Positions 13,310-57,898 of a stretch of 64,000 bases of DNA are shown piece after piece. Origin of the DNA: a virus. The notes beneath the pieces were generated by a model, which saw only the letters and a program-made list of their open reading frames with translations, ran no database searches and was not told where the DNA came from. Numbering within the stretch: the first letter of the stretch is position 1; each line of letters opens with the position of its first letter. A program made the translations under genes and the position numbers. The stretch lies in the IMG/VR virus record IMGVR_UViG_3300042484_001245, positions 28,931 through 92,930 of that record; one strand, 5' to 3'.

Positions 13310-13969
13310 ATGAAACTTATTTGCGAAGTTACAGAAGAAATCAAAGTAATCAAAGAGGGTGCAGAAACAGACCCTAAAAGCTATTACATTGAAGGTGTCT
13401 TCATGCAAGCGGAGATCAAGAACCGCAACGGACGTATGTACCCTGAAGAAATGCTCAAGAGAGAAATCGAGCGTTACAATGTTGAATACGTTCAAAAGAA
13501 ACGTGCGTTTGGTGAGTTAGGACATCCAGATGGACCTACAATCAATCTTGATCGTGTATCACACATGATCACTGAGCTTCGTCATGAGGGTGCAGACTTC
13601 ATAGGCAAGGCTAAGATTCTCAGTACACCAAATGGAAATATTGTTAAAGCACTTATTGATGAAGGTGCACGCCTTGGCGTGTCTTCTCGCGGAATGGGCT
13701 CAATCAAAACTGAAGGGCGCGATGTGCAGATCGTACAAGATGATTTTTATCTTGCAACAGCAGCCGATATTGTGGCAGACCCTAGTGCGCCTGATGCGTT
13801 TGTTAATGGGATAATGGAAGGTAAAGAGTGGGTATGGCAGAACGGCATACTCTGTGAGCGTGATATTCACGATATGAAGAAGCGCATTCAAAAAGCTCCA
13901 GCTAAGAAGATCAAAGAAGTAAGTGTGCAAGCATTTGAGAGCTTCATCAGGAAACTCGAAAAAAAGTAA
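13310..13969 (+). CDS. gp21: Prohead protease gp21
   Basis: YIEGVFMQAEIKNRNGRMYP, GELGHP, LGVSSRGMGS, DIVADPSAPDAFV. Confidence 0.96.
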   Translation: MKLICEVTEEIKVIKEGAETDPKSYYIEGVFMQAEIKNRNGRMYPEEMLKREIERYNVEYVQKKRAFGELGHPDGPTINLDRVSHMITELRHEGADFIGKAKILSTPNGNIVKALIDEGARLGVSSRGMGSIKTEGRDVQIVQDDFYLATAADIVADPSAPDAFVNGIMEGKEWVWQNGILCERDIHDMKKRIQKAPAKKIKEVSVQAFESFIRKLEKK

Positions 13970-14845: not shown

Positions 14846-16021
14846 ATGGCTATTACATCAAAGTTTTTGAGAGACATCCGTGAAAGTGCTGAAGCTGATT
14901 TGCCTATTCATGCTTCTGATGCATCATCTGACGCTCAGGCTGTAAAGGTTGAAGAGACTGATACAGACCACGAGAAGAAGATTGAGGAAGAGGAAGACGA
15001 GGAAGAAAAGCACGCCGTTGCCGAAGAGTCTGACGAAGACGAAAAGGCTGTAGCTGAAGAAGCTGACGAGGACGAACTCTCTGAAGAAGAGGAAGAAGAT
15101 CACGACAAGAAGGCTGTAGCTGAAGAAGCTGACGAGGACGAACTCTCTGAAGAAGAGGAAGAAGAAAAGCTCGCAGCTGCACACGAGTCATATGGCGATG
15201 AAGAAGAAGTAAAAGAAGAAGATGCTTCTATCGCAAAGGATGATGAAGAGAAACTTTCTGAAGAAGAAGATGAAGAAGTAAAAGAAGCGGCTGACGCTCT
15301 TACCAAGGATGAAGAACTCCCAGAGTCTTTCAAGTCCAAGGTTTCTTCTATCTTTGAAGCTGCCGTTAAGCGCACTGCCAAGAAGCGTGTTGCTGCGCAC
15401 AAGAAGAAGCTCGTAGAGAGCTACAACACCAAACTTGCAACGAGCAAGAAAAAGATTTCGGAAACCCTTGTCAACAAAGTCGATGGATACCTTGACTATG
15501 TTGTAGAAGAGTGGATGAAAGAGAATAGAGTGGCTGTTGAAGGTGCACTTCGCTCTGAGATAACTGAAAAGTTCATCACTGGATTGAAGAGCCTTTTTGA
15601 GAGTCATTATATCGAAGTTCCAGCTGAGAAGGCTAATGTGCTTTCTGAGCAGGAGTCTAAGATTAAGAAACTTGAGAAGGAGCTCAACGATGAACTCGTT
15701 AAGAGTGTCGAACTCCGTAAGGAGAACATTCGTCTCAAGAAGTCATCTATTATCAAGAAGCTCACTGAAGGAATGACTGTAACTGAATCAGCAAAGTTTG
15801 TTGAACTCTGTGAAGGGGTATCATACGAAAATGCTAATACATTCGGTCAGAAGCTCAAGGCGATTAAGGAAACTTACTTTCCAAAAACCCCTAAAAGCTC
15901 CGGTGACATTGACGCTTCTTTATTGACTGAAGGCGGTTTGACGCACGAAGATGAAAAGCCAAAGACTATTACTGCGGCTGACATCTATGCCCAAACCATT
16001 TCGCGTATGGTGAAGAAATAG
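14846..16021 (+). CDS. gp22: Prohead core scaffold gp22 with acidic N-terminal region
   Basis: IFEAAV, VDGYLDYVVEEWMKENRVAVE, FITGLKSLFESHYI, IKETYF; aggag SD. Confidence 0.93.
   Translation: MAITSKFLRDIRESAEADLPIHASDASSDAQAVKVEETDTDHEKKIEEEEDEEEKHAVAEESDEDEKAVAEEADEDELSEEEEEDHDKKAVAEEADEDELSEEEEEEKLAAAHESYGDEEEVKEEDASIAKDDEEKLSEEEDEEVKEAADALTKDEELPESFKSKVSSIFEAAVKRTAKKRVAAHKKKLVESYNTKLATSKKKISETLVNKVDGYLDYVVEEWMKENRVAVEGALRSEITEKFITGLKSLFESHYIEVPAEKANVLSEQESKIKKLEKELNDELVKSVELRKENIRLKKSSIIKKLTEGMTVTESAKFVELCEGVSYENANTFGQKLKAIKETYFPKTPKSSGDIDASLLTEGGLTHEDEKPKTITAADIYAQTISRMVKK
15044..15165 (+). repeat. Perfect 56-nt direct repeat, 66-nt period, in gp22
   Basis: aaggctgtagctgaagaagctgacgaggacgaactctctgaagaagaggaagaaga at 15044 and 15110. 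Confidence 0.9.
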
Positions 16022-16068: not shown

Positions 16069-17373
16069 ATGTATCTCACTGAAGAACTTCAAAAGAAATG
16101 GGAAAAGGTGCTTAGTCACCCTGATTTGCCTGAAGTGCAAGATGCACACAAGAGAGCGGTTCTTACTGTTCTTCTTGAGAATCAGGAGCAAGAGGCTCGT
16201 AAGGAGCGTGGCATCATTACTGAGTCACTTCCTGCTAACCACGGTGGTCTTGCAACCCAGACAACTACCGCAAACGGAACAGCTAACGCTAACGTTCAAG
16301 CATATGACCCAGTGCTCATTTCGCTCGTTCGTCGTGCTCTTCCAAACCTCATGGCATTCGATGTATGCGGTGTTCAACCAATGAAAGCTCCAACTGGGCT
16401 CATCTTTGCTATGCGTAGCAAGTATGACACACAGGATGGTGCTGAGGCTCTCTACAAGGAAGCTAAGACATCTCACTCTGGAACTGGTACGCATGATGCG
16501 ACTGATCCATTTGCAGCACCTGGTCGTGGTCTCACTTCGACAGCTGGTGAAGCACTCGGAACTTCTGGCGGAGCAGCGTTCAAGGAAATGGCTTTCTCTA
16601 TCGACAAGATTTCGGTAGAAGCTAAGACTCGTGCACTCAAGGCTGAGTACACAATGGAACTTGCACAAGACCTTCGTGCAGTACATGGTCTTGATGCTGA
16701 GACTGAGCTTGCTAACATCCTCTCTGCTGAAATTCTTGCAGAGATCAACCGTGAAGTAATTCGTACTGTGTACAACGTTGCTAAGGAAGGTGCTCAACAC
16801 ACTGGACTTGCTAACGCTGGAGAGTTCGACCTTGACGTTGATGCAAACGGACGTTGGTCTGTTGAGAAGTACAAGGGCTTGATGGTTCAAATCGAGCGTG
16901 AAGCAAACACAATCGCTAAGGAAACTCGTCGTGGACGTGGAAACATCCTCATCTGTGACGCTGACACTGCAAGCGCATTGTCTGTTGCTGGACTTCTTGA
17001 TTGTAACTCTGCTCTCAAGGATTCTCTCTCAGTTGATGATACTGGAAACACATTCGTTGGAGTTCTCAACGGACGTTTCAAAGTATACATCGACCCATTT
17101 GCTCCTCTTGGCACTAACTTCTTAGTTGCTGGATTCAAGGGCGCAAATCAATACGATGCTGGATTGTTCTACTGCCCATACGTACCACTTCAGATGGTTC
17201 GTGCAGTTGACACTGGTTCGTTCCAGCCAAAGATTGGATTCAAGACCCGTTACGGGCTTGTAGCTAATCCTTTCGCTGCTGCGACTGCTGGCGATAACGC
17301 TGCTCTTAGTGGCGCTCTCACAGCTGGAACTAACTCTTACTATCGTAAGGTTAGCATCAAGAACCTTCTCTAA
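16069..17373 (+). CDS. gp23: Major capsid protein gp23
   Basis: DPVLISLVRR, GVQPMKAPTGLIFAMRS, RALKAEYTMELAQDLRAVHGLDAETEL, SFQPKIGFKTRYG. Confidence 0.98.
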   Translation: MYLTEELQKKWEKVLSHPDLPEVQDAHKRAVLTVLLENQEQEARKERGIITESLPANHGGLATQTTTANGTANANVQAYDPVLISLVRRALPNLMAFDVCGVQPMKAPTGLIFAMRSKYDTQDGAEALYKEAKTSHSGTGTHDATDPFAAPGRGLTSTAGEALGTSGGAAFKEMAFSIDKISVEAKTRALKAEYTMELAQDLRAVHGLDAETELANILSAEILAEINREVIRTVYNVAKEGAQHTGLANAGEFDLDVDANGRWSVEKYKGLMVQIEREANTIAKETRRGRGNILICDADTASALSVAGLLDCNSALKDSLSVDDTGNTFVGVLNGRFKVYIDPFAPLGTNFLVAGFKGANQYDAGLFYCPYVPLQMVRAVDTGSFQPKIGFKTRYGLVANPFAAATAGDNAALSGALTAGTNSYYRKVSIKNLL

Positions 17374-21948: not shown

Positions 21949-22551
21949 ATGAAGGAAAAATCAGAACAAAGGAAACCACAGCACTATGTAAACAATGCTG
22001 AGTTTCTTAAACACATGAAAGAGCACATCGCCGAAGTGAACAAGGCAAAAAAGGCGAAGCAACCTCTTCCGAGAGTTTCAGACTACATTGGTGAATGCAT
22101 TGTCAACATCGCAAACAAGTTAGCTAACAAGCCAAACTTCATGAACTATCCTTTCAGAGAAGAGATGATCTCAGACGGTATAGAAAATTGTTTGCAGTAT
22201 TTGAATAATTTCAATCCCAAAAAGTCTTCTAATCCATTTGCATACTTCACGCAGATTATCTACTACGCTTTTGTACGACGAATACAAAAAGAGAAGAAGC
22301 AACTGTATACGAAGTATCGCATGATTGAAGAATCACTCTTACATGATATTCATGATGTTGAGAATGTTTCAGCGAATAAGTATGGCAGCGACCAAGCTGA
22401 CTTGAATATGCATGAGTTCGTAGAAAACTTTGAGAGGAGTCGTGAAAACAAGAAGAAGAAAACAAAAGAAGCAAAATCTTCAAAGAAGAAGAAGACTGGC
22501 TCAGATTTTGACGACATCTTCGATCAGTACAAAGACCTTCCAGAACAATAG
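21949..22551 (+). CDS. gp55: Late sigma factor gp55
   Basis: HYVNNAEFL, YIGECI, PNFMNYPFREEMISDGIENC, NPFAYFTQIIYYAFVRRIQKEKKQ. Confidence 0.96.
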   Translation: MKEKSEQRKPQHYVNNAEFLKHMKEHIAEVNKAKKAKQPLPRVSDYIGECIVNIANKLANKPNFMNYPFREEMISDGIENCLQYLNNFNPKKSSNPFAYFTQIIYYAFVRRIQKEKKQLYTKYRMIEESLLHDIHDVENVSANKYGSDQADLNMHEFVENFERSRENKKKKTKEAKSSKKKKTGSDFDDIFDQYKDLPEQ

Positions 22552-44806: not shown

Positions 44807-46211
44807 TCGAATTGAAAGCGTGATTCTCAGTAGTCTTATCAATGATGAGACTTTCTGTAGACGTGTGCTTCCGTTTATTAAGCCTGAATACTTTTCCGAT
44901 GAGTGTGAAAAGCTCATCTTCTTAAAAGTTTCAGACTTCATTTTGAAGTACGATTCGTTGCCTTCAAAAGAAGCACTCGTCATCGCAATTTCAAACGATA
45001 AACAACTTATCGATTCTGTAGAGAAACAGGCAAAAGATATTGTTGTATCACTTGAGCCAATCAAAGTTGAGCAGAAGTGGTTGATTGATCAGACTGAAGA
45101 GTGGTGTAAAGATCGTGCAATCTATCATGCACTCATGAACAGCATCAAGATTGCTGACGACAAGAAGGGTAAACTCAGTCGTGGCACAATACCAAAACTT
45201 TTGACTGATGCTCTTTCAGTATCTTTTGATCCAAACATTGGTCATAGCTACCTTGACGACACTGATTCTCGCTACGAGTTCTACCACAAAGTAGAAGAGA
45301 AGTTTGCGTTCGATCTTGATTGCATGAACAAGATCACAAAGAACGGTGTGCCTCGTAAGACGTTGAACGTTATTCTTGCAGGTACAGCCGTTGGTAAATC
45401 TCTCGCACTCTGTCACATGGCAGCGAGCTATTTCATGAATGGCAAAAATGTTCTGTACATTACACTTGAAATGGCAGAAGCACGTATTGCAGAACGTATT
45501 GATGCAAACTTGCTTAACATCTCACTGTCAGATCTTCAAAGCATATCAAAAGATATGTACGACAGAAAGATTGCAGCTATTAAGAGCAAAACAGTTGGGC
45601 GAATGATTATCAAAGAGTATCCAACTGCGACTGCGACTGTAACACACTTCAGAGCATTACTGAGTGAGTTGTATCTCAAAAAGAACTTTGTGCCGGATGT
45701 CATCTTTGTTGACTACTTAAACATTTCAGCCAGTGCACGATTGAATCAGTCAAATCATGTCAACAGCTACACATACGTGAAGAGCATTGCAGAAGAGTTT
45801 CGTGGTCTTGCTGTAGAGTGTAATGTTCCAATCTGGACTGCAACACAGACAAATAGACAAGGATTTGTTTCTAGTGATATTGGACTTGAGAATACATCAG
45901 AGTCATTTGGTCTTCCAGCGACTGCTGACTTTATGATTGCGCTCTCAACAACTGAAGAACTTGAACAGATGGGTCAGATTCTCGTAAAACAGCTCAAGAA
46001 TCGATACAACGACATCTCAACACTTAAACGCTTCGTGTTGGGTATTGATCGTTCAAAGATGCGTTTGTTTGATCTTGATCAATCTGCACAAGATGAGCTT
46101 GTTGATACTGACATGAAAGATAAAAATAAAGACTCATCGGTGTTTGACAAGTCTAAATTTGGATCATCAATGATGGCCGAGAAGAAAGACGTTGATGACT
46201 TTAAGTGGTAG
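44796..46211 (+). CDS. gp41: Replicative helicase gp41
   Basis: AGTAVGKS, YITLEMAE, VDYLNI, TATQTNR, SESFGLPATAD, KQLKNRY. Confidence 0.96.
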   Translation: MINDRIESVILSSLINDETFCRRVLPFIKPEYFSDECEKLIFLKVSDFILKYDSLPSKEALVIAISNDKQLIDSVEKQAKDIVVSLEPIKVEQKWLIDQTEEWCKDRAIYHALMNSIKIADDKKGKLSRGTIPKLLTDALSVSFDPNIGHSYLDDTDSRYEFYHKVEEKFAFDLDCMNKITKNGVPRKTLNVILAGTAVGKSLALCHMAASYFMNGKNVLYITLEMAEARIAERIDANLLNISLSDLQSISKDMYDRKIAAIKSKTVGRMIIKEYPTATATVTHFRALLSELYLKKNFVPDVIFVDYLNISASARLNQSNHVNSYTYVKSIAEEFRGLAVECNVPIWTATQTNRQGFVSSDIGLENTSESFGLPATADFMIALSTTEELEQMGQILVKQLKNRYNDISTLKRFVLGIDRSKMRLFDLDQSAQDELVDTDMKDKNKDSSVFDKSKFGSSMMAEKKDVDDFKW

Positions 46212-46217
46212 TTGTAT

Positions 46218-46310
46218 ATGTCACAACCTGAATCCAAAGAACGATTGTTTTTGGCTATTATTGCAGTTTTTCTTGCCATAGCACTTAGCATAATTGCGAA
46301 CAATAAGTAG
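46218..46310 (+). CDS. Putative 30-aa membrane peptide
   Basis: MSQPESKERLFLAIIAVFLAIALSIIANNK fills the gap after gp41. Confidence 0.4.
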   Translation: MSQPESKERLFLAIIAVFLAIALSIIANNK

Positions 46311-46346
46311 ACATAAATAATTGGTTGTGTGAGACTGATACGACCA

Positions 46347-47570
46347 ATGAGAACATTTAGACAATACATAACTGAATCTGCTGATAAGAATACTCATCTT
46401 GAGCATTTGGAAGATGAGGTATTCAATGGTGGTGTCAACGGCACTCGTAGAGCTATCAATTTTTTGAGAGGTCTGCGTGATATGCTTTCTGGAAGCAGCA
46501 CATCATCAGTCAACGTTACGGTTAAGTGGGACGGAGCGCCTGCAATCGTTTGTGGTATCAATCCAGAAAACGGTAAGTTCTTTGTTGCAACAAAGAGCGC
46601 ATTCAATAAGACACCAAAGCTCAACTATACACATGATGATATTGAAAAGAACCATTCTGGTCAGACAGCTCTTATTGAAAAATTGCGCATAGCTCTCGAC
46701 AATCTTTCCAAGCTAGGTATCAAAGGTGTTCTTCAGGGTGATCTTCTTTTCACAAAAGGTGAATTGCAAAACATCGAACACAGCGGCGAGTCACTTCTTG
46801 CATTTAGAGCAAACACAATCACGTATGCTGTTCCACAAGATTCAGATCTTGCAGATACAATTCGTGCAGCTAACATAGGCATCGTGTTTCACACAACGTA
46901 CACTGGCAACAAGATTCAAGATATGAAAGCGTCATTTGGCGCAAACGTTTCATCACTCAAGAAGACATCGAGTGTATGGGTTACTGATGCAGATTTCAGA
47001 GATGAATCTGGAACAGCAACACTCACAAAAGATGAGACGGCATACGTTACAGCACGTCTTAGTGAAATTGGCAGACAGTTCAATAGAATGGACTCAGCCA
47101 TTATCAACGAGATCGTAACTGATGACGAACTTATTGCATTCGTAAAAACTTATGTGAACGCTAAGGTAAAAGTTGGTGAGAACATCACTGGCACACAAAA
47201 GTACGCAAAGGGTCTTGTTGAATTCATCACAGACAAGTATCAGAAAGAGATTGACAAGCTCAAGACAGAGCGAGGAAAACAAGGTCGTAAAGAGCGACTA
47301 AATGCACACATATCTTTCATCAAAACAAATCGTGAGCAGTTAATTTTGATGTTCTTAATTGCAGCACTGATTGCTGATGTGAAAGGTGTTTTGTTGAGCA
47401 AGCTACGCAAAGTCAATTCTATTGGCACGTTTTTAGAGACGCCTGATGGTTTCAAAGTAACTTCGCCTGAAGGCTTCGTTGCAGTAGACCACTTGAAGGG
47501 TAACGCAGTTAAACTTGTTGATCGTCTTGAATTCAGTAGAGCAAATTTCACACTCGACAAAGGTTGGTAG
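46347..47570 (+). CDS. Ligase-fold nucleotidyltransferase-like protein with capsid-targeting leader
   Basis: Leader MRTFRQYITE; KWDG, TKS, QGDL, EGFV, VKL motifs. Confidence 0.7.
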   Translation: MRTFRQYITESADKNTHLEHLEDEVFNGGVNGTRRAINFLRGLRDMLSGSSTSSVNVTVKWDGAPAIVCGINPENGKFFVATKSAFNKTPKLNYTHDDIEKNHSGQTALIEKLRIALDNLSKLGIKGVLQGDLLFTKGELQNIEHSGESLLAFRANTITYAVPQDSDLADTIRAANIGIVFHTTYTGNKIQDMKASFGANVSSLKKTSSVWVTDADFRDESGTATLTKDETAYVTARLSEIGRQFNRMDSAIINEIVTDDELIAFVKTYVNAKVKVGENITGTQKYAKGLVEFITDKYQKEIDKLKTERGKQGRKERLNAHISFIKTNREQLILMFLIAALIADVKGVLLSKLRKVNSIGTFLETPDGFKVTSPEGFVAVDHLKGNAVKLVDRLEFSRANFTLDKGW

Positions 47571-47572
47571 AC

Positions 47573-48289
47573 ATGAAACGTTTCAAAGTATTCATTACAG
47601 AGTCACACGACGATCTTCATGAAGATGCTGAGTATCAAGGTAAGAAAGTTACTTTGAACAAGCCATTCAGAACTCCAGATGGACCAAAGAAATTTTCTGT
47701 GTATGTAAAGAATGACAATGGTAACGTTGTCAAAGTCAACTTCGGTGATCCCAATATGGAGATTAAGCGTGATGATCCTGAGCGTAGAGCAAATTACAGA
47801 GCACGCCACAATTGTGATGATCCCGGACCTAAGTGGAAAGCAAACTACTGGTCATGCAAGATGTGGTCTTCAAAACCAGTCTCTAAGATTGCAGAGAATG
47901 TTGATGTGTCTCAAGCCGCAAAACTGTTCTCTAAGTTTTTGAGAACTACTGGTGCTCCAGACAAAGTTTCTACATTCACATCGACAAAGAAAAATGTGTT
48001 CAAAGGGCAATCAGCTAAATGGGAATACGTTGTTGATATGGACAAGAAAACTGTATCGGCACGTCAACGTTCTAGCATGAATGATGCTGTGTATGTGTGG
48101 GATGATAAGACTAACGCAATTAAAATTGTTGAGTCTAAGACCAACTTAACTGAAGCAGCACCACCTGACGCAGAAGTTGAGCAGTGGATTAAAGACAACA
48201 AAGAAAGATTTAAGAAAGAGTATGGTGCAGAAGAGGGTGAAAAGATTCTCTATGCAAAGGCTTGGAAAATGTATAATGATAAAAAGTAG
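47573..48289 (+). CDS. Multi-module putative internal head protein
   Basis: Leader MKRFKVFITE; modules V.FGDPNM..RR.NYRARHNC..YWSC and FKKEYG..ILYAKAWK. Confidence 0.65.
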   Translation: MKRFKVFITESHDDLHEDAEYQGKKVTLNKPFRTPDGPKKFSVYVKNDNGNVVKVNFGDPNMEIKRDDPERRANYRARHNCDDPGPKWKANYWSCKMWSSKPVSKIAENVDVSQAAKLFSKFLRTTGAPDKVSTFTSTKKNVFKGQSAKWEYVVDMDKKTVSARQRSSMNDAVYVWDDKTNAIKIVESKTNLTEAAPPDAEVEQWIKDNKERFKKEYGAEEGEKILYAKAWKMYNDKK

Positions 48290-48298
48290 GAGAATGTT

Positions 48299-48541
48299 AT
48301 GATCGTAAAACCTTTATCACAAGAAGTCACACTCGCATCTGCAACTGATGTTGAGCTTGCATCTGTTGTTCGTGTTGTCAATACTGGCAGTACAACTACT
48401 GTTACTGTCAAAGATGGTGACACAACAGTAGCATCGCTGACTGTAGCAGCTGGCGAAGTTTTGAATATTCAAAAGACACCTTCGCATACATTGTTGGCAA
48501 CAGCATCAGTAAAAGCAGTGAAGATTGCACACACAAACTAA
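48299..48541 (+). CDS. Small beta-rich hypothetical protein
   Basis: aggag SD; Val/Thr/Ala-rich 80 aa. Confidence 0.6.
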   Translation: MIVKPLSQEVTLASATDVELASVVRVVNTGSTTTVTVKDGDTTVASLTVAAGEVLNIQKTPSHTLLATASVKAVKIAHTN

Positions 48542-49599
48542 TGAAAAGTTTTGTTGAATACATCACGGAGGCTAATCCAGTTGTCGATAAACAATATCGC
48601 AGCGAAGCCCTGCACGTATTCAATCGAATTATTGCCAAGCTAGAAAATCTAGTCAAAGCAAAATCAACACAGCACATGAAGATTGAGCAATCGACTCGAT
48701 CTCCTGTTTTGTATTTTGATCTTGGTGAATTTCTTGGTGATGGTCGATACAAAGGTGTTAGACTATCATTTGATAGTGTCAATCGCAATTATGGTGGGGC
48801 GTACGGCAATGAATATGGTAAAATTGAACTTGTTCTTGCCATTATGAACATGAGAAAGGTGCGAGATCCTAAATATAAAATGACCAACACCTCATATGAT
48901 GATCATAATGGTTGGGAGTATTCTCCAGCATTTCTTAATTGGGAGGACTCAAGTAATTATGAACACCTTTTGGATACTATAAAGAGAAAGAAAGAAGAAG
49001 TGCGAGACGTTTTTGTTCATGAGTTTATTCATCACATGGACACATTTCGATACAAAAAGTCTGCATACAAATCAGAGCCATCATACAACGACAGAACTGG
49101 CTACGGTCAAGAATATTTCAATCATCCAAAAGAGCTGAACGCCCACACACAAGAAATGATCATGAATATTGATGAGTGGTATAAAACATACTACCTCAGT
49201 ATCGCTACAACACTCAAATCAAATTTTGTAAAGAAGTTTAACTCGGCAAATAATCAAGACCAATATGAAGATGCGATGTTTCTCGCTCATAAGTTTGCAT
49301 TGAACTACGATATGTTTGTTCAATACATTTCGGACAAAAATTTTGCCATAAAAGAGATTAGAGAAAAGATACCTAGAGGAAAACACATTTTCGGAAAACA
49401 CTTAACGGTTGATAACAAGAAAAAGGTTTTAGCTAGACTGTATCAATACTATGATGAAGTGTTGAAGAAGAGGTTTCAGCTTCTTAAATCTACGCTAGAT
49501 AAATTACCAAAGCAATTAAACAATCCAGAAGCCGCAGCGTATGTAAAACTTCATGCGCCTGATGCATACAAAACTCTTCGTAAACTGGGTATGAAATGA
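48541..49599 (+). CDS. HExxH metalloprotease-like protein with capsid-targeting leader
   Basis: Leader MKSFVEYITE; VHEFIHHMD and downstream YFNHPKELNAH. Confidence 0.65.
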   Translation: MKSFVEYITEANPVVDKQYRSEALHVFNRIIAKLENLVKAKSTQHMKIEQSTRSPVLYFDLGEFLGDGRYKGVRLSFDSVNRNYGGAYGNEYGKIELVLAIMNMRKVRDPKYKMTNTSYDDHNGWEYSPAFLNWEDSSNYEHLLDTIKRKKEEVRDVFVHEFIHHMDTFRYKKSAYKSEPSYNDRTGYGQEYFNHPKELNAHTQEMIMNIDEWYKTYYLSIATTLKSNFVKKFNSANNQDQYEDAMFLAHKFALNYDMFVQYISDKNFAIKEIREKIPRGKHIFGKHLTVDNKKKVLARLYQYYDEVLKKRFQLLKSTLDKLPKQLNNPEAAAYVKLHAPDAYKTLRKLGMK

Positions 49600-50609
49600 A
49601 AACTTTAGTAGAAGTTGTAAAGAAGAAAAAAGCAGTGTTCGCTTTTGGACGAATGAATCCTCCTACTATTGGTCACGAAAAACTCATCAACAAAGTAATT
49701 GCAGTTGCACGAAAAGAAAACGCAGAGCCGTTTATATTTGTTTCTCATACACAAGATTCAAAGAAGAATCCCTTGTCAAGTAAGCAGAAAGCAAAATACT
49801 TGAGACTTGGAGTTCCAGCAGCTGAAAAACACATCAAAGCAGAATCAACAATCAAAACTCCATTTGATGCTCTTGGTCATTTGATTGATCTTGGCTACAC
49901 TGATGTCATCATGATTGCTGGTGATGATCGTGTTGCAGATTTCAAAAAGTCTATTGGCAGTTATGTTAATCATCCAGATCCTGATAAGAGCTTTGAGTTA
50001 AACTCATTCAAAGTTGTTAGTGCAGGTGCTCGTGATCCAGATGCTGATGGTGCTGAAGGAATGAGCGCAACGAAAATGCGACAAGCTGCGACATCAAATG
50101 ATTTTGCATCTTTCAAGAAAGGTGTGCCATCGAATCTCAGTGACAAGTTTGCTCGTGAGATGTTTGATGAAATTCGCAAAGCTATGCACATTGTTGAAAT
50201 GGTCGAAGAGATTCAAAAACTCAAGAACACTCTCAATATACCACGCAAGAATATGCCACAGATCAAGCGAGAGTTCATACCAGATTTTATTAAGAGACTT
50301 GACAAACTTGGTGTTGACGTTGCAAAGCGTGATGTAAGCGTTCGCACTCTCAAGCCAACACAGTCAGAAGTGAACATGAATAAGGTGCGTGAGAAGCACG
50401 AGAAGTTTGTGAGTGGTAAGAAAGAGCCTAAGCCATTCATCGTATCATACGACAACTTTATATTGGACGGTCACCATCAGTTGTTGGCTCTTCAGACTTT
50501 GGATAAAGACATTAAAGTGCCATGCTACGTCATTGGCATACGAATGAAAGACTTATTGCAGTACGCACATGACTATCCAAAGACAACTTATAAAGACATA
50601 GACGACTAA
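49596..50609 (+). CDS. HIGH-family nucleotidyltransferase (cytidyltransferase-like) fused to a ParB-like domain
   Basis: FGRMNPPTIGH, KNPL, GDDR, MSATKMR; C-terminal LKPTQ..ILDGHH. Confidence 0.8.
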   Translation: MKTLVEVVKKKKAVFAFGRMNPPTIGHEKLINKVIAVARKENAEPFIFVSHTQDSKKNPLSSKQKAKYLRLGVPAAEKHIKAESTIKTPFDALGHLIDLGYTDVIMIAGDDRVADFKKSIGSYVNHPDPDKSFELNSFKVVSAGARDPDADGAEGMSATKMRQAATSNDFASFKKGVPSNLSDKFAREMFDEIRKAMHIVEMVEEIQKLKNTLNIPRKNMPQIKREFIPDFIKRLDKLGVDVAKRDVSVRTLKPTQSEVNMNKVREKHEKFVSGKKEPKPFIVSYDNFILDGHHQLLALQTLDKDIKVPCYVIGIRMKDLLQYAHDYPKTTYKDIDD

Positions 50610-50620
50610 ATACGAATACT

Positions 50621-50938
50621 ATGAAAGACTTCAAAACATTCATAAACGAAGCAGCAGACACGTCACCCTCGGCTGAAGACCGTGCTCGTGAGCGCATCAA
50701 TCGTGAGAAAGAAGCGGCAAAGATTCGCCAGAATCGTGAGTTGGAACGTGCTCGTGAACAAGACTTTAGAAAGAAAGTTGCTGACAGAAAAGCAGCTGAA
50801 GTAAAGAAGAACGCAGAGCGAGCCCTTGGTGAAGAAGATGTTGTTACAACAGACGACACCGAAGAAGTGACTGAGTATGTTGAAGATGGCACACCTGAAG
50901 CTGTAGCAGCATATCGAAAAGCTACGCCAGGAATCTAG
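50621..50938 (+). CDS. Small charged putative internal head protein
   Basis: Leader MKDFKTFINE; late box at 50605; C-terminal GT......Y...TPG. Confidence 0.65.
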   Translation: MKDFKTFINEAADTSPSAEDRARERINREKEAAKIRQNRELERAREQDFRKKVADRKAAEVKKNAERALGEEDVVTTDDTEEVTEYVEDGTPEAVAAYRKATPGI

Positions 50939-50986
50939 TATACATAGTAGTGACGTTGACTTAATTTTTGTTTAATGGAGAATAAT

Positions 50987-51277
50987 ATGAGTAATGATAC
51001 AGCACAAACAACTGAGCAGACAACTGAAGAAACAACCGCAGAGGCAACAGCCGTTGCTGAACTTCCAGTATTGACGACTGAGCAAGAAATCGCAGCACTT
51101 CGTAGTGTTCATGAGTTTCTTTCTAAGTTTGATCGTGTACCTGGGTTTCTTGCTAATCAATGGTCGCAAGCTCTCGACACGGTAGCAGTAGTTGCAAATT
51201 CTCTCATCAGAAAAGCAACAGATGCTAACGCACAAACTACAACTGAAGCTCAAACTGAAGACACAATCACTCAATAA
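50987..51277 (+). CDS. Hypothetical Thr/Glu-rich protein
   Basis: ggag SD; fills the operon. Confidence 0.55.
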   Translation: MSNDTAQTTEQTTEETTAEATAVAELPVLTTEQEIAALRSVHEFLSKFDRVPGFLANQWSQALDTVAVVANSLIRKATDANAQTTTEAQTEDTITQ

Positions 51278-51292
51278 TTTTGTGGTGTTGTT

Positions 51293-51478
51293 ATGCCATA
51301 CTATGAATACGAGTGTAAGAAGTGTGGAATAGTTGAAGTTCGACAGAGCATTACTGATGAGCCGTTGAAGAAGTGTCCTGTTTGTGACGCAAAAGTAAAA
51401 CGCATCATATCTGCTACTGCCGATCCTCAATTCAAAGGCTCAGGCTTTTACACAACTGATTACGTGAAGAAAAAGTAA
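51293..51478 (+). CDS. FmdB-family zinc-ribbon protein
   Basis: MPYYEYECKKCG..CPVC..FKGSGFYTTDY. Confidence 0.9.
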   Translation: MPYYEYECKKCGIVEVRQSITDEPLKKCPVCDAKVKRIISATADPQFKGSGFYTTDYVKKK

Positions 51479-52347
51479 TGTCAATCGTTGCTTGCAAATA
51501 CTTTGAAGATATTGGCTGGGTAATTGCCAAGAATCGAGATAGGTCGTACAAACCTCTCATTCGTGTGCGCAAGTCTTTTCGCAATAATGTTGAAAGACTT
51601 TTACTCTGGGACCAAAAGACAAAGTACACTGAAGGCGTAAACGAATACGGTGTTGCTATTGTTTCAGCTAGTATCTCAACTACTACTGATGAGATTGAGG
51701 GGGCAATAGCAACAAAGTACAATTCACGATTGACTAAGACGCCACGAGTCTATTACTCACCAGACGGTCTGCGAATTCGCAAAGCACTTTTTGAAAAGAC
51801 TGCGTTCGATGCAATTCGTAAAGTCATCGAGTTTCAAATACCAGGTAACACCATTGTTGCAGACAAAGACAGATGCTTTTTGATCGAAGCCGGCTTTCTA
51901 AACACAAATGAGTATGTGTATGAAGTTGTCGAAGTTCCAACAACACATATTGCAGTAAGAACAAATCACGGCATCTTTTTACCGTGGACTGGGTACAGTG
52001 CTGATGTGCCGCAAGAAGTATCAAAGCGACGAAGTTCTGAAGTTCGATATGAAAAAGTCAACGAGGGTCTAAAACGTGCATCAACGTTTGAACAGTTTGT
52101 CGATGTGTTGTCAAACAGTAATGATAGCAATCCACAAATGAACCCATTGCGTGTAGATCCAAGAAAAGGTGCTATGCGAACGTCTGGTCAAATCTTCATT
52201 GTTCCAAAAGACAAAACCTTGCACTATAGACCTATATGGTGTGATACCGTGTTCAATCTGGATAAGCTAAATACAGTCACAGAGAAAACTTTCTTTGAAG
52301 TTGTATCAACAAGAAAGTTGATAAGTTTTACAAATCATTCCATGTAG
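51478..52347 (+). CDS. Ntn-hydrolase-fold protein
   Basis: N-terminal residue-2 nucleophile position, KNRDR, EGVNEYG, RTNHG, SS..RY. Confidence 0.65.
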   Translation: MSIVACKYFEDIGWVIAKNRDRSYKPLIRVRKSFRNNVERLLLWDQKTKYTEGVNEYGVAIVSASISTTTDEIEGAIATKYNSRLTKTPRVYYSPDGLRIRKALFEKTAFDAIRKVIEFQIPGNTIVADKDRCFLIEAGFLNTNEYVYEVVEVPTTHIAVRTNHGIFLPWTGYSADVPQEVSKRRSSEVRYEKVNEGLKRASTFEQFVDVLSNSNDSNPQMNPLRVDPRKGAMRTSGQIFIVPKDKTLHYRPIWCDTVFNLDKLNTVTEKTFFEVVSTRKLISFTNHSM

Positions 52348-52354
52348 GGGAATC

Positions 52355-53464
52355 ATGGCATCTATAAAAGACGTATCCAAATCGCTTATTAACGCAGTGA
52401 GCGAAGTTGTTACAAAAAGTTCAGAACACAGAGCTAAATTAGAGCGAGCTGTGTTTGTTGAAGCACTCAAAAAGTTTAAGGTATCGTCTGTATCAGAACT
52501 AGCTGAACAGGATAAGAAAGCATTTCATGCTTACGTTCAGAATCAGTTGACTGAATCTGATTGTTCTTGTGGTTCTATGGATGAAGACGATATGCCTGGA
52601 GATGAAGTATATCACAAAGGTGGAGATGAAGATGCTGAGAAAAAGAAAGAACTTGGTGAAGACGAAGACGAAGAAGATTCGAGCGTTGACGCCTCCGACT
52701 CAGAAGAGAAAGACGATATTGAAGAGCGTTGCTGGGACGGCTACAAACCTACGCCTGGTGTAAAGGCATATGAAAAGGGTTCTTGCATGAAAGAAGGTGC
52801 AGACCCCGATGAGCTTGCAACAAATGGAGCACTTGGTGTCACTGATGCTTCAAAGCAACTTCCTGTTCACGCTGATGTTCTCAAAGATTCTTCCCCCGTC
52901 GATGGAACAACAGAATACAGACTCTTTGCACAATTCAACACAAACACTTTGCCACAGATTGTTCCGCCAGTAACTCTTCCCGGTGCACCAACAGTTGATG
53001 CGCTTCGTGATATTGTTGAGGGACTTCCTTGGTTCTGTGATGTATGCGAAAGGGCACTTGCTGACGCAAGTGACTCTCCCCATCAAAGAGTAGCAGACGA
53101 AACAACTGAAGTAAATGAGTCGTACATAGCCACACCTTACGATAAGAAAGTGATGGCAACAATAAAAAATACTGTAAAAGCTCACGAGGTAACTGTTAGT
53201 GACACTTTAACTAAAGGCCTTCATGTTCATAAATTCACAGCTGTTGTTGATAAACCTGAACTTGCGCCTGAGATCCAAATAATTCATGTTAGTGAAGAGC
53301 CTAGCAGAAAAGCTCCCGGAAAATCTGTATGGCGAGTTCAATCGGACATAAACGGCTATGGTATTGAAAGTCTTGTTAGTGAGCCATATCTTCCTGGTGT
53401 TGAGCTTAAAGCACTTCAAGCATTGAAGGATGTTCTTGCAAAAGTATTTTTGCAAAATAAATAA
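52355..53464 (+). CDS. Acidic multi-module putative internal head protein
   Basis: ALKKFKVSSVSEL...KKAF module, CWDGY..PG......SC module, several hydrophobic-x-E junctions. Confidence 0.55.
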   Translation: MASIKDVSKSLINAVSEVVTKSSEHRAKLERAVFVEALKKFKVSSVSELAEQDKKAFHAYVQNQLTESDCSCGSMDEDDMPGDEVYHKGGDEDAEKKKELGEDEDEEDSSVDASDSEEKDDIEERCWDGYKPTPGVKAYEKGSCMKEGADPDELATNGALGVTDASKQLPVHADVLKDSSPVDGTTEYRLFAQFNTNTLPQIVPPVTLPGAPTVDALRDIVEGLPWFCDVCERALADASDSPHQRVADETTEVNESYIATPYDKKVMATIKNTVKAHEVTVSDTLTKGLHVHKFTAVVDKPELAPEIQIIHVSEEPSRKAPGKSVWRVQSDINGYGIESLVSEPYLPGVELKALQALKDVLAKVFLQNK

Positions 53465-53468
53465 TTGT

Positions 53469-54056
53469 ATGAAATCGTTTCGCACATATTTGAAAGAAGA
53501 TGTTGAGGTAGACAGTGACGTTGCGGTAACAACTGCACTTCCTGAAATCTATCTTGATATGGACGAAACAATCGTAGACTGGATGAAAGGTGCTGACGAA
53601 GCTCTTGAGCGAGCTGGCAAGCCATCATGGAATGATTCATACTGGACAGAGAATCACACTGAAGAAGAAGCTGAAAAGATCAAGTGGCAGATTCTTAATA
53701 CTACACCAAACTTCTGGGAGAATCTTGAATTTCTACCTGACGGTAAAGCCCTCTGGAACTTTGTGAAGAAGTACAAGCCACACATTCTCAGTGCCTGTGG
53801 CACACTCGCCACTACGTGTAAGAATGGCAAGAAACGTTGGTTAGCAAAGTTCTTAGGGTATAAAAACCTTGGTAACATTCATCTTGTAAAGCGTTCACAG
53901 AAAAAAGATTTTGCTGTTGTTGATGGTAAGCCCACAATACTTATTGACGATTTCATCAAGAATTGTCAAGAGTACAAAGCTCATGGTGGGCTGGCAATTC
54001 AGCGCACAACTACTATAGAAGTGATTAGTAAATTAAAGCGTCTGGGATTCAAATAA
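53469..54056 (+). CDS. HAD-superfamily 5'(3')-nucleotidase/phosphatase with capsid-targeting leader
   Basis: Leader MKSFRTYLKE; IYLDMDETI, ILS, K, ILIDD. Confidence 0.8.
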   Translation: MKSFRTYLKEDVEVDSDVAVTTALPEIYLDMDETIVDWMKGADEALERAGKPSWNDSYWTENHTEEEAEKIKWQILNTTPNFWENLEFLPDGKALWNFVKKYKPHILSACGTLATTCKNGKKRWLAKFLGYKNLGNIHLVKRSQKKDFAVVDGKPTILIDDFIKNCQEYKAHGGLAIQRTTTIEVISKLKRLGFK

Positions 54057-54089
54057 ATAAAGTATAACTTTTAATTGGAGATAATTGAT

Positions 54090-54947
54090 ATGTCACTTTG
54101 GGGTAAAGAAGATAAGACGACAGCTCGACCAAAATCAGTTAAGCTAAAAGCTAACGGTACCCTCGCTCATGATGCATCTGGTAAGAAACTGGTATACTTG
54201 TCTAAAGAAGAAGCTATTGCAAACTCTACTAAGGGTGCATCTGGTGCTGGTTGGTACACTGTTCTTACTACTAAGAAAGGTACGGCTGAAGAGCGCACAC
54301 GTCTTGAACTTCTTATCGCAATCTCTGATGAAGATAGAGTGTCAATTAATAATGTTGAGTTTATAGAAGCAGATTTATTTAATAGTAATGTTCTTGCTAA
54401 TGGTGGTGCCGCTGCTGGAATAGAAGATCCTAATGGTCGTCCTGGATGGTATTTCAAAAACGATTCCTCTGGAAAAAAGGTTAATTGGTATTATTTTGAT
54501 GGTCAAGCATACAATATAAATTTGAGTGATTTTTCTGCGTATGCTGTAGTCACTCTTGATTCTACAACTTCACGTCCATTTTTAGCACTGTATAGCAAAC
54601 CCACAGGAGCCGGAGATATTATACCTGGGTTTGCTCGCTCAAGTAGGGTATATACTTGGCCAGCAGGCGCCGTTGCGGGAACAAAATATTTGATATATTT
54701 TGGACAAAATCCTAATGTTCATTTAGACTTACCAAGAGTTGAATTAACACCAGGAATAACTAGAGGACCTTTCCTACCCACAGAAAAAGTGGCAACTATA
54801 TCTTTGCACTCTGACTCAGGATCTTCTGTAAATAATGTTCAGTTTGTTGTAGAAAATTTGGGTATTAATTCTACCACAGTAAAAGCTGACGTAGAATTAA
54901 AACTCGATGTTAGTGACGTAACTGAAGACGATGCTGGCCTAGAATAA
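54090..54947 (+). CDS. Putative virion structural/decoration protein
   Basis: MSLWG start and GW..R.R.ELLIAI motif seen in T4-like structural proteins; late box at 54052. Confidence 0.5.
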   Translation: MSLWGKEDKTTARPKSVKLKANGTLAHDASGKKLVYLSKEEAIANSTKGASGAGWYTVLTTKKGTAEERTRLELLIAISDEDRVSINNVEFIEADLFNSNVLANGGAAAGIEDPNGRPGWYFKNDSSGKKVNWYYFDGQAYNINLSDFSAYAVVTLDSTTSRPFLALYSKPTGAGDIIPGFARSSRVYTWPAGAVAGTKYLIYFGQNPNVHLDLPRVELTPGITRGPFLPTEKVATISLHSDSGSSVNNVQFVVENLGINSTTVKADVELKLDVSDVTEDDAGLE

Positions 54948-54977
54948 TCTTAATCAGAACATTGTCGTAGTTATATC

Positions 54978-55391
54978 ATGCTAGATGAATTTTTTGAAGA
55001 TATGGGCATAAGATTGACAGAAAAAAATGTTGTCATGTATGCTATGAAACATTACGACAATGTTCAGTGCATCGACATTGATGAGTTCTATGACGACTTA
55101 AAGCGCATTAACTACATCAAACGTTTGTTTGTTCGTTACAAGAATGAAAATGAACTAAAAGAACGATTGATTCTTAACCATCTCATTATTTTGTTTAATG
55201 TGTTTCCTGTAAACGTTGCAACCAATCTTTTGTTCTTCAAGATAGACGGTGAACACTGGTCGCAGCTAAAAACGTTTCTTGTATATCTGAACTATATGCC
55301 AGAAAAGCTAACGTTTTTAGAAAATTGTGAGATCATCACCAGTGACATACCACTTGACTCTCACATCATATCTGTTTTGAGGTGCTTATGA
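54978..55391 (+). CDS. Conserved T4-like hypothetical protein
   Basis: YAMKHYDN.QC...EFYDDLKR..YIKRL, ERLILNHLIILFNVF, LKTFLVYLNYMP. Confidence 0.75.
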   Translation: MLDEFFEDMGIRLTEKNVVMYAMKHYDNVQCIDIDEFYDDLKRINYIKRLFVRYKNENELKERLILNHLIILFNVFPVNVATNLLFFKIDGEHWSQLKTFLVYLNYMPEKLTFLENCEIITSDIPLDSHIISVLRCL

Positions 55392-55738
55392 AAACGTATC
55401 GCCAACTCATTACTGAAGCAAAGTCATTCTCAAAAGATGATGCACATCGTATCGGCGATAAACTAGACGTAAATTGGGACAAAGTTGACATCGAGCAATT
55501 CAGAATTGGTCTTGGCGTCGAAAGTGAGCACGATGATGGATCTGAGCTTGATGTTGTTGGATCTGAAAAAGACTTAGGCAAGATCGTACTCGCACACTTA
55601 ACAGAACTTCCAGATTACTACACAAAACTCAAGCAAGTTGAAGAAGAGGGTGTTCCAGCAAATTCAATCTCTGGTGGTGGAATCGCAAACATAGATCAAC
55701 CCCTCGTTCGCAAGAAACCAAAAAACGAAAGCAAATAA
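55388..55738 (+). CDS. Small putative internal head protein
   Basis: Leader MKTYRQLITE; G..VE.EH..I.LAHL.E.PDYYTKL metal-binding-like motif. Confidence 0.7.
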   Translation: MKTYRQLITEAKSFSKDDAHRIGDKLDVNWDKVDIEQFRIGLGVESEHDDGSELDVVGSEKDLGKIVLAHLTELPDYYTKLKQVEEEGVPANSISGGGIANIDQPLVRKKPKNESK

Positions 55739-55819
55739 TCTCATCAAAAGTTTGATAATTTCCGAACCTATGTTATTATTAAACGTAGGTAATAATTGGA
55801 TATTATCATAAATACTACT

Positions 55820-56152
55820 ATGGATGAGAAAGACGACAAGCAACCAGACAATCTCTTCGACTCTTTAGGTCTCGAAGTGAAGTTTGGTGATGTAGAAGTG
55901 GGACAAACGTACCCCATCTACGGGATGATAACTGACATAATCTCAGACACGCCGGGTGATGTCATTGTCATGGTCAACTACAATATCGAAATGCGCATGA
56001 ATGTAGAAGATGCTGAGAAACTTGCACTTCTTAAACGAAAATGTTTTGAGCCAGGAATTTTTGTTTGTGCCATAAGTCACACTGAGCCATCTGTTAAAGG
56101 AGATTGTGTGACAGTTGTCTTTGGTAAAAGTAGCACTTCGGAAATGCACTAA
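55820..56152 (+). CDS. Hypothetical protein
   Basis: CATAAATA box just upstream. Confidence 0.55.
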   Translation: MDEKDDKQPDNLFDSLGLEVKFGDVEVGQTYPIYGMITDIISDTPGDVIVMVNYNIEMRMNVEDAEKLALLKRKCFEPGIFVCAISHTEPSVKGDCVTVVFGKSSTSEMH

Positions 56153-56153
56153 T

Positions 56154-56489
56154 ATGAAAACTTTTATAGAATTGCGAGAAGAACTTTACGCTGGCATCAA
56201 ACAGCTCAAGTCATCTATTGATGACGCTATGATCAATATGTCGAAGATGTATGGTGAAGAACACTATGCAATTCAAAGATTGAAATCGTACTATCCTGCA
56301 TTAGACAAGCAGTTAGAATATGCAAACGATTTAGATGAATCAATGCGAACGGGAAATCACGAAGAGACGGCGCAAGCAATTGCACGAATACAAGCCATCT
56401 CCGACATGATTCGCACTGATGCCAAATCACTTTTGAACAGTCTACATACAGGAAAGGATATCATACCAGATACAAAATCACTACACTAA
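56154..56489 (+). CDS. Hypothetical helical protein
   Basis: Starts MKTFIELREE, a weaker match to the leader. Confidence 0.55.
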   Translation: MKTFIELREELYAGIKQLKSSIDDAMINMSKMYGEEHYAIQRLKSYYPALDKQLEYANDLDESMRTGNHEETAQAIARIQAISDMIRTDAKSLLNSLHTGKDIIPDTKSLH

Positions 56490-56492
56490 GAT

Positions 56493-56882
56493 ATGCGAGC
56501 ATTCTTCATTTTTAATAACATGAAAGTGAATACGTTTGCTCTTCAAGATCAGCCGTTTCCTGGGTTTGAGTTGTTGACGTGGGAGCACGAATCGTTTGTA
56601 GATGGTACATTATGGGACATTGGTAACGATGCTGGTTACACACCGATAGGTATAACCAAAGTTCATGGACAACTTTGGCTGGCACAAGACACACAACAAA
56701 TATCAGAGCTTGAATATTTCTTGGGTGTTCAGTCTGGATTGACTGAACCAATGAACACAAAAGCCTATATACAAACACACGATGTTGCTGAGAAAGTAGA
56801 TGTCGTGATATATAGACTGAAAAACATCGATACGAACTATCTCATAGTTCACGATGGAAAGTGGATGATTAAACGGTCGTGA
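56493..56882 (+). CDS. Gamma-glutamylcyclotransferase-like fold protein (degenerate)
   Basis: G-x-L-W/Y-D-x-G..Y, V-x-G-x-L-W/Y spacing; canonical YG[ST]L and catalytic E absent. Confidence 0.45.
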   Translation: MRAFFIFNNMKVNTFALQDQPFPGFELLTWEHESFVDGTLWDIGNDAGYTPIGITKVHGQLWLAQDTQQISELEYFLGVQSGLTEPMNTKAYIQTHDVAEKVDVVIYRLKNIDTNYLIVHDGKWMIKRS

Positions 56883-56883
56883 T

Positions 56884-57315
56884 ATGTTGACAAGTATATT
56901 ATTGTTTTTGAATAAATTGTGGGATAACAGAATTGTCATAGTGCTAGGTGCCTTTGGTGTTCTCATCGCCGCGTTTTATTTCTATTACGTTATTGCATCA
57001 AACAGAATTGATGAATTGACTCGTGAGAAGATTGAGCTTCAAGCAATTGTTGAACAACAAAAGAAAGCCATCGAACAGATTCAGCGTGATTATAAACACG
57101 TTATCGAATCGAAAGAAGAACTGAACAAACAAATACAAGACACACAAACAGAAGTGCAAGAGCTTCGTGAAAAGTTGTTCAGAGAAAATCAAGGCAAGCG
57201 ACCCCTCGAAGAGCTTGCAACAAAGAAGACTACATTGATTGAAAAGAAGATCAACAAAGCCACACAAGATGTGTTGAGCTGTCTTGAGCTTTTGACACGT
57301 GGAGGCGATTGTTAA
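56884..57315 (+). CDS. Inner-membrane spanin (Rz-like)
   Basis: Single N-terminal TM, coiled coil, C-terminal Cys residues; coupled to a lipoprotein gene. Confidence 0.7.
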   Translation: MLTSILLFLNKLWDNRIVIVLGAFGVLIAAFYFYYVIASNRIDELTREKIELQAIVEQQKKAIEQIQRDYKHVIESKEELNKQIQDTQTEVQELREKLFRENQGKRPLEELATKKTTLIEKKINKATQDVLSCLELLTRGGDC

Positions 57316-57665: not shown

Positions 57666-57846
57666 GAAGACAGAAGAAGCAACAGTAGAAGTGGTTGAAG
57701 CTCCAGCTCAGAAGCTGGATGTTGCTACTGTCGAAGTTGCAAAGTCTCCAGTGCCACCATCTCGTCGTTTGTTTCCATCTTCATTGATCGCAGAATTGGA
57801 TGCAATCAAAGCACGTCTTGATGAAATTGAAAAAAAGCTGAAGTAA
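57640..57846 (+). CDS. Hypothetical protein
   Basis: Basic N-terminus, C-terminal coiled coil. Confidence 0.5.
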   Translation: MATKKRKSKKTEEATVEVVEAPAQKLDVATVEVAKSPVPPSRRLFPSSLIAELDAIKARLDEIEKKLK

Positions 57847-57898
57847 GCCATTTTAATATTATGTTGCCTCAGCCTGGCATTTTGATATACTACCTTTC

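Follow-up and report, generated by a model that had tools for sequence, protein, structure and literature searches.

Seven late proteins encoded by a T4-like myovirus, otherwise unrelated to one another, begin with the same ten-residue leader, which is probably a T4-type capsid targeting sequence (CTS) carried by internal head proteins that are processed by the gp21 protease. The DNA under study comprises bases 28931–92930 of a 92,930-base viral contig from IMG/VR (record IMGVR_UViG_3300042484_001245); this 64,000-nucleotide (nt) stretch is termed the window, and its coordinates are used throughout. The leader was defined by the regular expression M-[KR]-x-[FYL]-x-x-[FYL]-[ILVR]-x-E, tested at each ATG of the window and of the complete contig, on either strand. 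Exactly seven matches are obtained in the 92,930 bases, at window positions 46347, 47573, 48541, 50621, 53469, 55388 and 56154, all on the + strand and all at the heads of open reading frames (ORFs) of 105–407 residues. Block-shuffled genomes give a mean of 0.07 matches with a maximum of 1, and amino-acid composition leads to an expectation of 0.0066 matches in 97 genes; the pattern is real and lies far above chance. The seven genes fall inside 16 consecutive genes of the 97 (P ≤ 7e-5), and once the leaders are stripped the proteins show no mutual match and belong to separate BLAST families. All eight N-termini quoted in a preliminary description of this DNA are found in the sequence, including the two it regarded as weaker, 56154 (R at position 8) and 49596 (MKTLVE, no E10). 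Its remark that upstream starts hide the pattern also holds, as GTG, TTG or ATG codons at 46329, 47564, 53430, 55382 and 56115 mask it in a mechanical ORF list. All seven matches of the whole-contig scan fall in the late-promoter island (window 46347–56154).

Within the leaders, position 4 is F or Y and position 7 is F, Y or L in seven of seven. Two end in ITE↓S and two in ITE↓A, where the arrow marks the predicted cut, and one each in INE↓A, LKE↓D (an imperfect P1′ residue) and REE↓L (a weak match). The codons at conserved positions vary synonymously (TTT/TTC, TAT/TAC, ATA/ATC/ATT and GAA/GAG), F/Y/L and I/L/V interchange at these positions, and the seven 30-nt leader DNAs are only ∼60% identical, with a maximum of 73%. 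Such synonymous variation at low DNA identity points to selection on the leader peptide rather than on the DNA or RNA.

The constrained positions (4, 7, 8 and 10) are those mapped in the T4 CTS, in which residues 4 and 7 mainly serve targeting and residues 8 and 10 processing (review, PMC9026906). According to the T4 record, the internal proteins (IPs) IPII and IPIII start MKTYQEFIAE↓A, whereas IPI starts MKTFKEF and has a 19-residue leader that ends ITE↓A; the 55388 leader, MKTYRQLITE↓A, is identical to that of IPIII at 7 of 10 positions. The CTSs of IPI, IPII and IPIII (Mullaney and Black 1996; PMC9026906, PMC3012670) resemble the present leaders in their length of ∼10 residues, the MK[TS][FY] start, the aromatic or hydrophobic residues at 4 and 7, and the [IL]-x-E at 8–10 followed by a small residue, and in both phages the leaders are borne by otherwise unrelated proteins in the presence of a gp21 protease and a gp22 core. 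The T4-type assignment of the preliminary description is upheld by the conserved CTS positions, by the likeness of 55388 to the IPII/IPIII leader and by the presence of gp21, gp22, gp23 and gp55 (Table 1). Applied to the whole T4 genome as a control, the expression retrieves ipII, ipIII and one further ORF, gene 61.1. This T4 gene (NC_000866, 18966–19130; locus L136:467–631, − strand) encodes a hypothetical protein of 54 residues whose start, MKTFKEFIKE↓D, is a near-perfect CTS, and it occupies the syntenic position of the leader cluster, between genes 41 and 61. The G/S-rich middle and Lys-rich end of gp61.1 show a faint likeness to the C-terminus of 55388 and to the N-termini of the cyanophage 'major head protein' T4-GC426; the similarity of gp61.1 to the 55388 C-terminus (BLAST E 0.11) does not suffice to call the two homologous. 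A signal-peptide interpretation of the leaders was rejected, as they are charged and amphipathic, not hydrophobic; the only true lipoprotein signal in the area, at 57315, belongs to a spanin.

The processing sites of the head proteins agree with the leader ends. In the gp21 homologue, the motifs GELGHP and GVSSRG align with T4 gp21, and the gp22-type scaffold contains 25 [LIV]xE sites. In an alignment of T4, Melnitz, G001 and G002, the predicted maturation site of gp23, IITE↓S (residues 49–53), aligns with the LTE↓A of T4. Four leaders, ending in ITE↓S or ITE↓A, match this predicted site of the phage's own gp23, and a fifth ends in INE↓A. The same correspondence is seen in Melnitz, where FLSE↓A of gp23 is mirrored by the leader MQGFKTFLSE↓A, and in phage S-CREM2, where LLTE↓A of the major capsid protein is mirrored by MKNFSSFLTE↓A. 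The N-terminus of gp21 itself (window 13310–13340), MKLICEVTEE, has [LIV]xE sites at residues 6 and 9, which parallel the LIE-9 site noted for T4 gp21 and suggest N-terminal self-processing.

The heptamer ATAAATA (NATAAATA), which we take to be the T4-type late promoter, occurs 18 times on the + strand and 0 times on the − strand of the contig, and most copies lie 25–45 nt 5′ of structural genes (baseplate, sheath, tube, gp22 and gp23). No such box is found in the 25 kb of replication genes at 20902–46312, nor 3′ of the leader cluster. The 10-kb cluster itself contains four, at 46312, 53456, 54052 and 55807. Judged by these promoter sequences, the cluster is a late island within the replication region, a location that fits proteins needed during prohead assembly. 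The gap that holds the first box is the only sizeable one, the genes from 46347 to 54056 following one another almost without spacing, and the box at 53456–53463 stands just 5′ of the leader gene at 53469. The preliminary description had several leader genes following TAAATA late boxes; the boxes are real, but fewer leader genes follow them than this implies, and the typical distance of 35 nt is seen only at 46312. Sigma-70-like promoters and intrinsic terminators were found in 44000–59000 at shuffle level only. On the − strand of the contig ∼15 copies of ATAAATA would be expected against the 0 observed, which suggests selection against antisense late promoters.

Table 1. Head-assembly genes, leader-bearing genes and late-promoter boxes of the window (window coordinates; ↓, predicted cut)
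Position	Strand	Feature	Length and leader	Basis or remark
13310..13969	+	gp21-type prohead protease, predicted processing enzyme		Pfam Peptidase_S77 3.5e-38
14846..16021	+	gp22-type head scaffolding (core) protein, predicted leader docking partner		phrog_237 7.6e-61
16069..17373	+	gp23 major capsid protein		Pfam Gp23 4.2e-133
21949..22551	+	gp55-type late sigma factor		phrog_234 late sigma transcription factor 3.7e-59
46312..46319	+	Late-promoter box CATAAATA		35 nt 5′ of 46347, in 135-nt gap after gp41 gene
46347..47570	+	Cargo 1, DUF6267	407 residues, 44 kDa, MRTFRQYITE↓S	Pfam DUF6267 E 2.9e-118 from residue 15
47573..48289	+	Cargo 2	238 residues, 26 kDa, MKRFKVFITE↓S	Weak DUF5754 match; phrog_7595
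48541..49599	+	Cargo 3, invariant HExxH	352 residues, MKSFVEYITE↓A	Regular expression, orthologue alignment
49596..50609	+	HxGH-type cytidylyltransferase-like and ParB-like protein	337 residues, degenerate MKTLVE↓VVKK	Pfam CTP_transf_like 2.4e-6, ParBc_2 8.7e-5
50621..50938	+	Cargo 4, small charged protein	105 residues, MKDFKTFINE↓A	Orthologues in L005, L006, L007
53469..54056	+	Cargo 5, HAD-type 5′-nucleotidase/phosphatase	195 residues, MKSFRTYLKE↓D	phrog_2643 5′-3′ deoxyribonucleotidase 1.4e-22
54052-54059	+	Late box AATAAATA		5′ of leaderless gene 54090-54947
54090-54947	+	Head-protein-like	285 residues, leaderless	Weak phrog_613 'head protein' match, residues 1–95
55388..55738	+	Cargo 6, DUF5661	116 residues, MKTYRQLITE↓A	Pfam DUF5661 2.4e-19 from residue 19
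55807-55814	+	Late box CATAAATA		5′ of cargo 7
56154-56489	+	Cargo 7	111 residues, weaker MKTFIELREE↓L	Regular expression

In the mechanism that we propose, the gp55 sigma factor would direct late transcription of the tagged genes from NATAAATA promoters. During prohead assembly, the new proteins would dock on the gp22 scaffolding core through their aromatic or hydrophobic residues 4 and 7, and gp21 would cut after E10, at the motif [IL]-x-E↓small that is also the type of site on gp23; both the docking and the cleavage step we infer by analogy with T4. The mature proteins would be freed inside the head and stay with the DNA. This cargo would consist of an RNA-ligase-like enzyme, a HAD phosphatase, an HExxH protein, three small proteins, a 26-kDa protein and perhaps the cytidylyltransferase/ParB-like protein. 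By analogy with the T4 IPs and Alt, the proteins may also, as the preliminary description proposed, be ejected into the host, act ahead of phage transcription and play an enzymatic or counter-defence role, a tentative extension that we regard as possible rather than probable.

The best-defined cargo is the DUF6267 protein (cargo 1). Residues K60-W-D62-G63, E375-G376 and K389 are invariant among 36 orthologues and correspond to ligase motif I (KxDG, with the catalytic Lys), motif IV (EG) and motif V (K). In the AlphaFold2 model (predicted local distance difference test score, pLDDT, 77), residues 1–18 have pLDDT <50 and are unpacked against the fold. The best long structural matches of the model in the VIA comparison are all RNA or DNA ligases, with Z below 8 throughout: Naegleria RNA ligase 5cot (Z 7.6, root-mean-square deviation 3.9, 182 residues aligned), Trypanosoma brucei REL1 1xdn (Z 7.3, 199 aligned), T4 Rnl2 (Z 6.7, 178 aligned) and T4 Rnl1 (Z 6.4). 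Foldseek likewise gives weak ligase matches for the model (E ∼0.05), and a phmmer comparison of DUF6267 with PDB sequences found no match. Because these Z-scores are middling, cargo 1 is described here as ligase-like and not as a proven ligase. The ligase assignment of the preliminary description gains support in this sense from the invariant KxDG/EG/K motifs together with ligase matches of Z 6.4–7.6.

Further enzyme motifs are present in the cluster. The nucleotidyltransferase that had been suggested with some hesitation is supported for 49596 by its Pfam matches and by phrog_3041 (1.4e-61), and the HAD phosphatase for 53469 by phrog_2643 together with Pfam NT5C (1.2e-4; 22.4 bits, just under the 24.8 cut-off) and a DxDxT motif present as DMDET. 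The metalloprotease is not confirmed beyond its HExxH motif. Cargo 3 has invariant HEF[IV]H and ELNAHTQE segments, in 4 orthologues only, but Pfam and PHROG searches with it gave no match, and the fold search with its model (pLDDT 70) returned generic helical bundles alone, over residues 185–345, and no protease. Orthologues of cargo 2 in loci L005, L006, L082 and L083 retain the leader. The Pfam domains DUF6267 and DUF5661 begin C-terminal to the leader residues (Table 1), and the larger mature cargo proteins are basic, with isoelectric points (pI) of 8.8–9.4. Searches of the ESM Atlas returned viral hypothetical clusters only, plus weak LPD23/LPD1 leads below 0.9. PHROG 455 covers both DUF6267 and the nucleotidyltransferase, and in S-PM2 (L095:6026–7805) DUF6267 is split, p141 being its N-terminal half and p142 its C-terminal half fused to the cytidylyltransferase. 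The shared PHROG and the p142 fusion suggest that the DUF6267 enzyme and the nucleotidyltransferase are functionally coupled.

The leader is also found in related phages. No nucleotide match to the cluster was found among named phages (megablast). Protein comparisons place Methylophilales phage Melnitz and Pelagibacter phage HTVC008M closest among named phages (46–47% identity), followed by hundreds of cyanomyoviruses, and the records examined are classified as Kyanoviridae. With the cargo 1 protein as query, we retrieved 80 viral-contig loci (856 kb), in which the expression gives 78 matches on the gene strand and 0 on the opposite strand; without their leaders, the tagged proteins of these relatives represent 14 unrelated families. 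E10 is kept in 34 of 36 DUF6267 orthologues at 46–93% identity, and the leader was not found on the DUF6267 homologues of Syn9, S-PM2 and S-SM1. The cytidylyltransferase, with its degenerate leader here, bears a complete leader in many relatives, where the proteins reach 1074 residues. As the presence of the leader varies among the orthologues of both families, its gain and loss resemble those of a portable module. One 495-residue DUF6267 protein (L024:660–2144) has two copies, MKTFKSYITE at its N-terminus and a Met-less FESFSGYITE immediately in front of the KNTH block, as though the tagged enzyme had acquired a small tagged ORF by fusion.

Virion proteomes of two relatives bear on the location of the tagged proteins. 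The cytidylyltransferase T4-GC190, part of the cyanophage core, was detected in purified S-SM1 virions (Sullivan et al. 2010, text and supplementary file 3), and in the S-SM1 record this protein, SSM1_190, starts MKKFSAFLNE↓A. The S-CREM2 paper lists the cytidylyltransferase gp154 as a virion protein by mass spectrometry and comments that such enzymes often turn up, unexplained, in cyanophage virions; gp154 starts MKNFSSFLTE↓A. Neither virion report mentions a targeting sequence. T4-GC190 (SSM1_190, Syn9 gp184, S-PM2 p142 and S-CREM2 gp154) is homologous to 49596 and lies in the same 41–61 island; the leader is present on its S-SM1, Syn9 and S-CREM2 members (MKKFSAFLSE↓A in Syn9 gp184), and those of S-SM1 and S-CREM2 are the ones detected in virions. 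The leaderless DUF6267 homologue T4-GC71 has no virion mark in supplementary file 3 of Sullivan et al., which marks virion-detected clusters. The relation between leader presence and virion detection agrees in direction with a CTS, in small numbers. In the present phage, as compared with these relatives, the leader of the cytidylyltransferase is degenerate and a full leader is instead found on six or seven other proteins.

Several observations weigh against the leaders being CTSs. The phage is an uncultured contig, ∼64% complete (CheckV), and for Kyanoviridae proteins cleavage after E10 is so far a prediction. Two of the leaders are imperfect, LKE↓D at 53469 having an acidic P1′ residue and 56154 an R at position 8. 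In Melnitz and HTVC008M, the closest named phages, the leaders are all degenerate. In DUF6267, E10 lies only 0–3 residues from the invariant KNTH block, so that the leader could partly be a feature of this family. The link between leader and virion detection rests on very few proteins; the S-CREM2 detection amounts to 3 peptides, and the authors of that paper caution that virion preparations may carry along abundant non-structural proteins.

Among the alternatives, the one that fares best accepts packaging by the leader and has the proteins act inside the capsid only, for example as DNA-condensing, head-stabilising or assembly factors, so that they would not reach the host as active enzymes. 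The basic pI of the larger mature proteins suits DNA-associated internal proteins, the island also has genes for head proteins without a leader, of types abundant in virions of cyanophages (T4-GC425 and T4-GC426), and ejection would follow here only by extension from T4. The invariant catalytic-type motifs (KxDG, EG and K of DUF6267, HxGH, and DxDxT), kept at 46–93% identity, argue instead for enzyme function, and in T4 the IPs and the 70-kDa enzyme Alt exit the head with the DNA. We consider a purely capsid-bound role unlikely.

A second alternative holds that the leader is no capsid signal at all, and is either a feature of translation initiation or the mRNA (an A-rich second codon or a downstream box) or an amphipathic N-terminal helix acting as a chaperone, degron or oligomerisation element. 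Of 69 leaders, 53 indeed have AAA as their second codon, AT-rich phage genes commonly begin with MK, and several Melnitz and HTVC008M cluster genes open with MK[ST]F but have no [IL]-x-E end. Yet the codons change synonymously and the residues interchange within F/Y/L and I/L/V at the conserved positions, the highly expressed late genes for gp23, sheath and tube have no such motif, and the motif ends in the cleavage tripeptide of the phage's own gp23. Its constrained positions are moreover those mapped by experiment in T4 (PMC9026906), and leader-bearing orthologues are present in virions. This explanation we hold to be very improbable. That the leaders are functionless recombination remnants, a short shared 5′ module for cassette swapping as proposed for the T-even ip loci, has in its favour the 14 unrelated families, the coming and going among orthologues and the tandem copies on the L024 protein, but it earns next to no credence, since leader DNAs of ∼60% identity (maximum 73%) are too dissimilar for homologous exchange, it is the amino-acid sequence that is conserved, and such an origin would be compatible with CTS function without replacing it.

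The CTS as a device is already known from T-even phages. Literature on the CTS with cyanophages and on DUF6267, together with two reviews of T4-like genomes, contained no description of the leader outside T-even phages, and the KVP40 genome paper might hold an earlier mention; a search joining CTS and cyanophages returned a T4 review only. What would be new with respect to T-even phages is the marine Kyanoviridae-like phage group, the placing of the genes in a late island bounded by genes 41 and 61, a tag that orthologues gain and lose in modular fashion, and a conserved enzyme-like cargo of up to 44 kDa here and >1000 residues in relatives. The IPs of T4 inhibit GmrSD-type nucleases and are small, non-enzymatic and quick to evolve (PMC12373910), unlike the present cargo, which includes proteins of 21–44 kDa that have enzyme motifs and are conserved in hundreds of genomes of marine phages. 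No cargo protein is homologous to any T4 IP, and the 41–61 late island in which the genes lie also sets them apart from the IPs. A further precedent is the T4 ADP-ribosyltransferase Alt, a head-carried enzyme that is trimmed by gp21 and delivered into the host along with the DNA, and which shows that large enzymes can use such a route. Alt has its own propeptides at both ends (review, PMC9026906), and the cargo proteins lack an ADP-ribosyltransferase domain. In phiKZ-like giant phages and SPN3US (PMC5694885), N-terminal propeptides of ejection proteins are cut by a gp21-related protease at x-x-E and are thought to target the proteins into the prohead, as proposed for the present leaders; they measure 80–130 residues and differ in this from the shared 10-mer.

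If the leaders are CTSs, the tag provides a simple, sequence-readable rule to predict head-carried proteins of uncultured T4-like phages and offers a mechanism for the unexplained cytidylyltransferases and other 'non-structural' proteins in purified cyanophage virions. It also singles out the conserved ligase-like/nucleotidyltransferase pair as candidate first-strike enzymes of very abundant ocean phages. In a wider and speculative form, marine T4-like phages (Kyanoviridae: cyanophages, pelagiphages and relatives) might rely on the CTS to load the head in advance with a conserved set of enzymes that is delivered with the DNA and is active before phage gene expression, tag gain and loss setting the enzymes that each lineage delivers. 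This set would comprise the RNA-ligase-like DUF6267 protein, the NMNAT-like nucleotidyltransferase with its ParB-like domain and the HAD phosphatase, and could counter abortive-infection defences, for example by repair of cleaved RNA or by restoring a nucleotide cofactor. We regard this generalisation as doubtful in its full extent.

The surroundings of the leader genes are shared with relatives. Nearly the whole gene set of the contig is on the + strand, and the window also encodes UvsX. The cluster sits between the gp41 helicase (44796–46211) and the gp61 primase (57899–58909), and a gp41–gp61 block of mostly hypothetical genes is also present in Melnitz, HTVC008M, Syn9, S-PM2 and S-SM1; the equivalent block of S-CREM2 lies immediately 5′ of its primase. 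The N-terminus of the leaderless 54090 protein, MSLWG, resembles S-layer-domain proteins of Melnitz, HTVC008M and S-SM1, whose cluster T4-GC425 is flagged as a virion protein. A leaderless island protein of 289 residues (window 51478–52347), for which Pfam and PHROG searches gave no match, starts MSIVACKYF, the early Cys recalling N-terminal-nucleophile hydrolases. The DUF7207/phrog_407 protein at 54978–55391 (T4-GC198), also without leader, has counterparts in the 41–61 or pre-primase island of all relatives examined, namely Syn9 gp189, S-PM2 p149, S-SM1 196 and S-CREM2 gp159, with Melnitz gp28 and an HTVC008M protein (L004 23164–23529) placed here by N-terminal resemblance. The island is closed by an Rz-like spanin pair (56884–57315 and 57315–57665; phrog_739 6e-14 and phrog_812 1.7e-14), which consists of a membrane-anchored coiled-coil protein and a lipoprotein with the start MRKFSLLLCVCLSAC.

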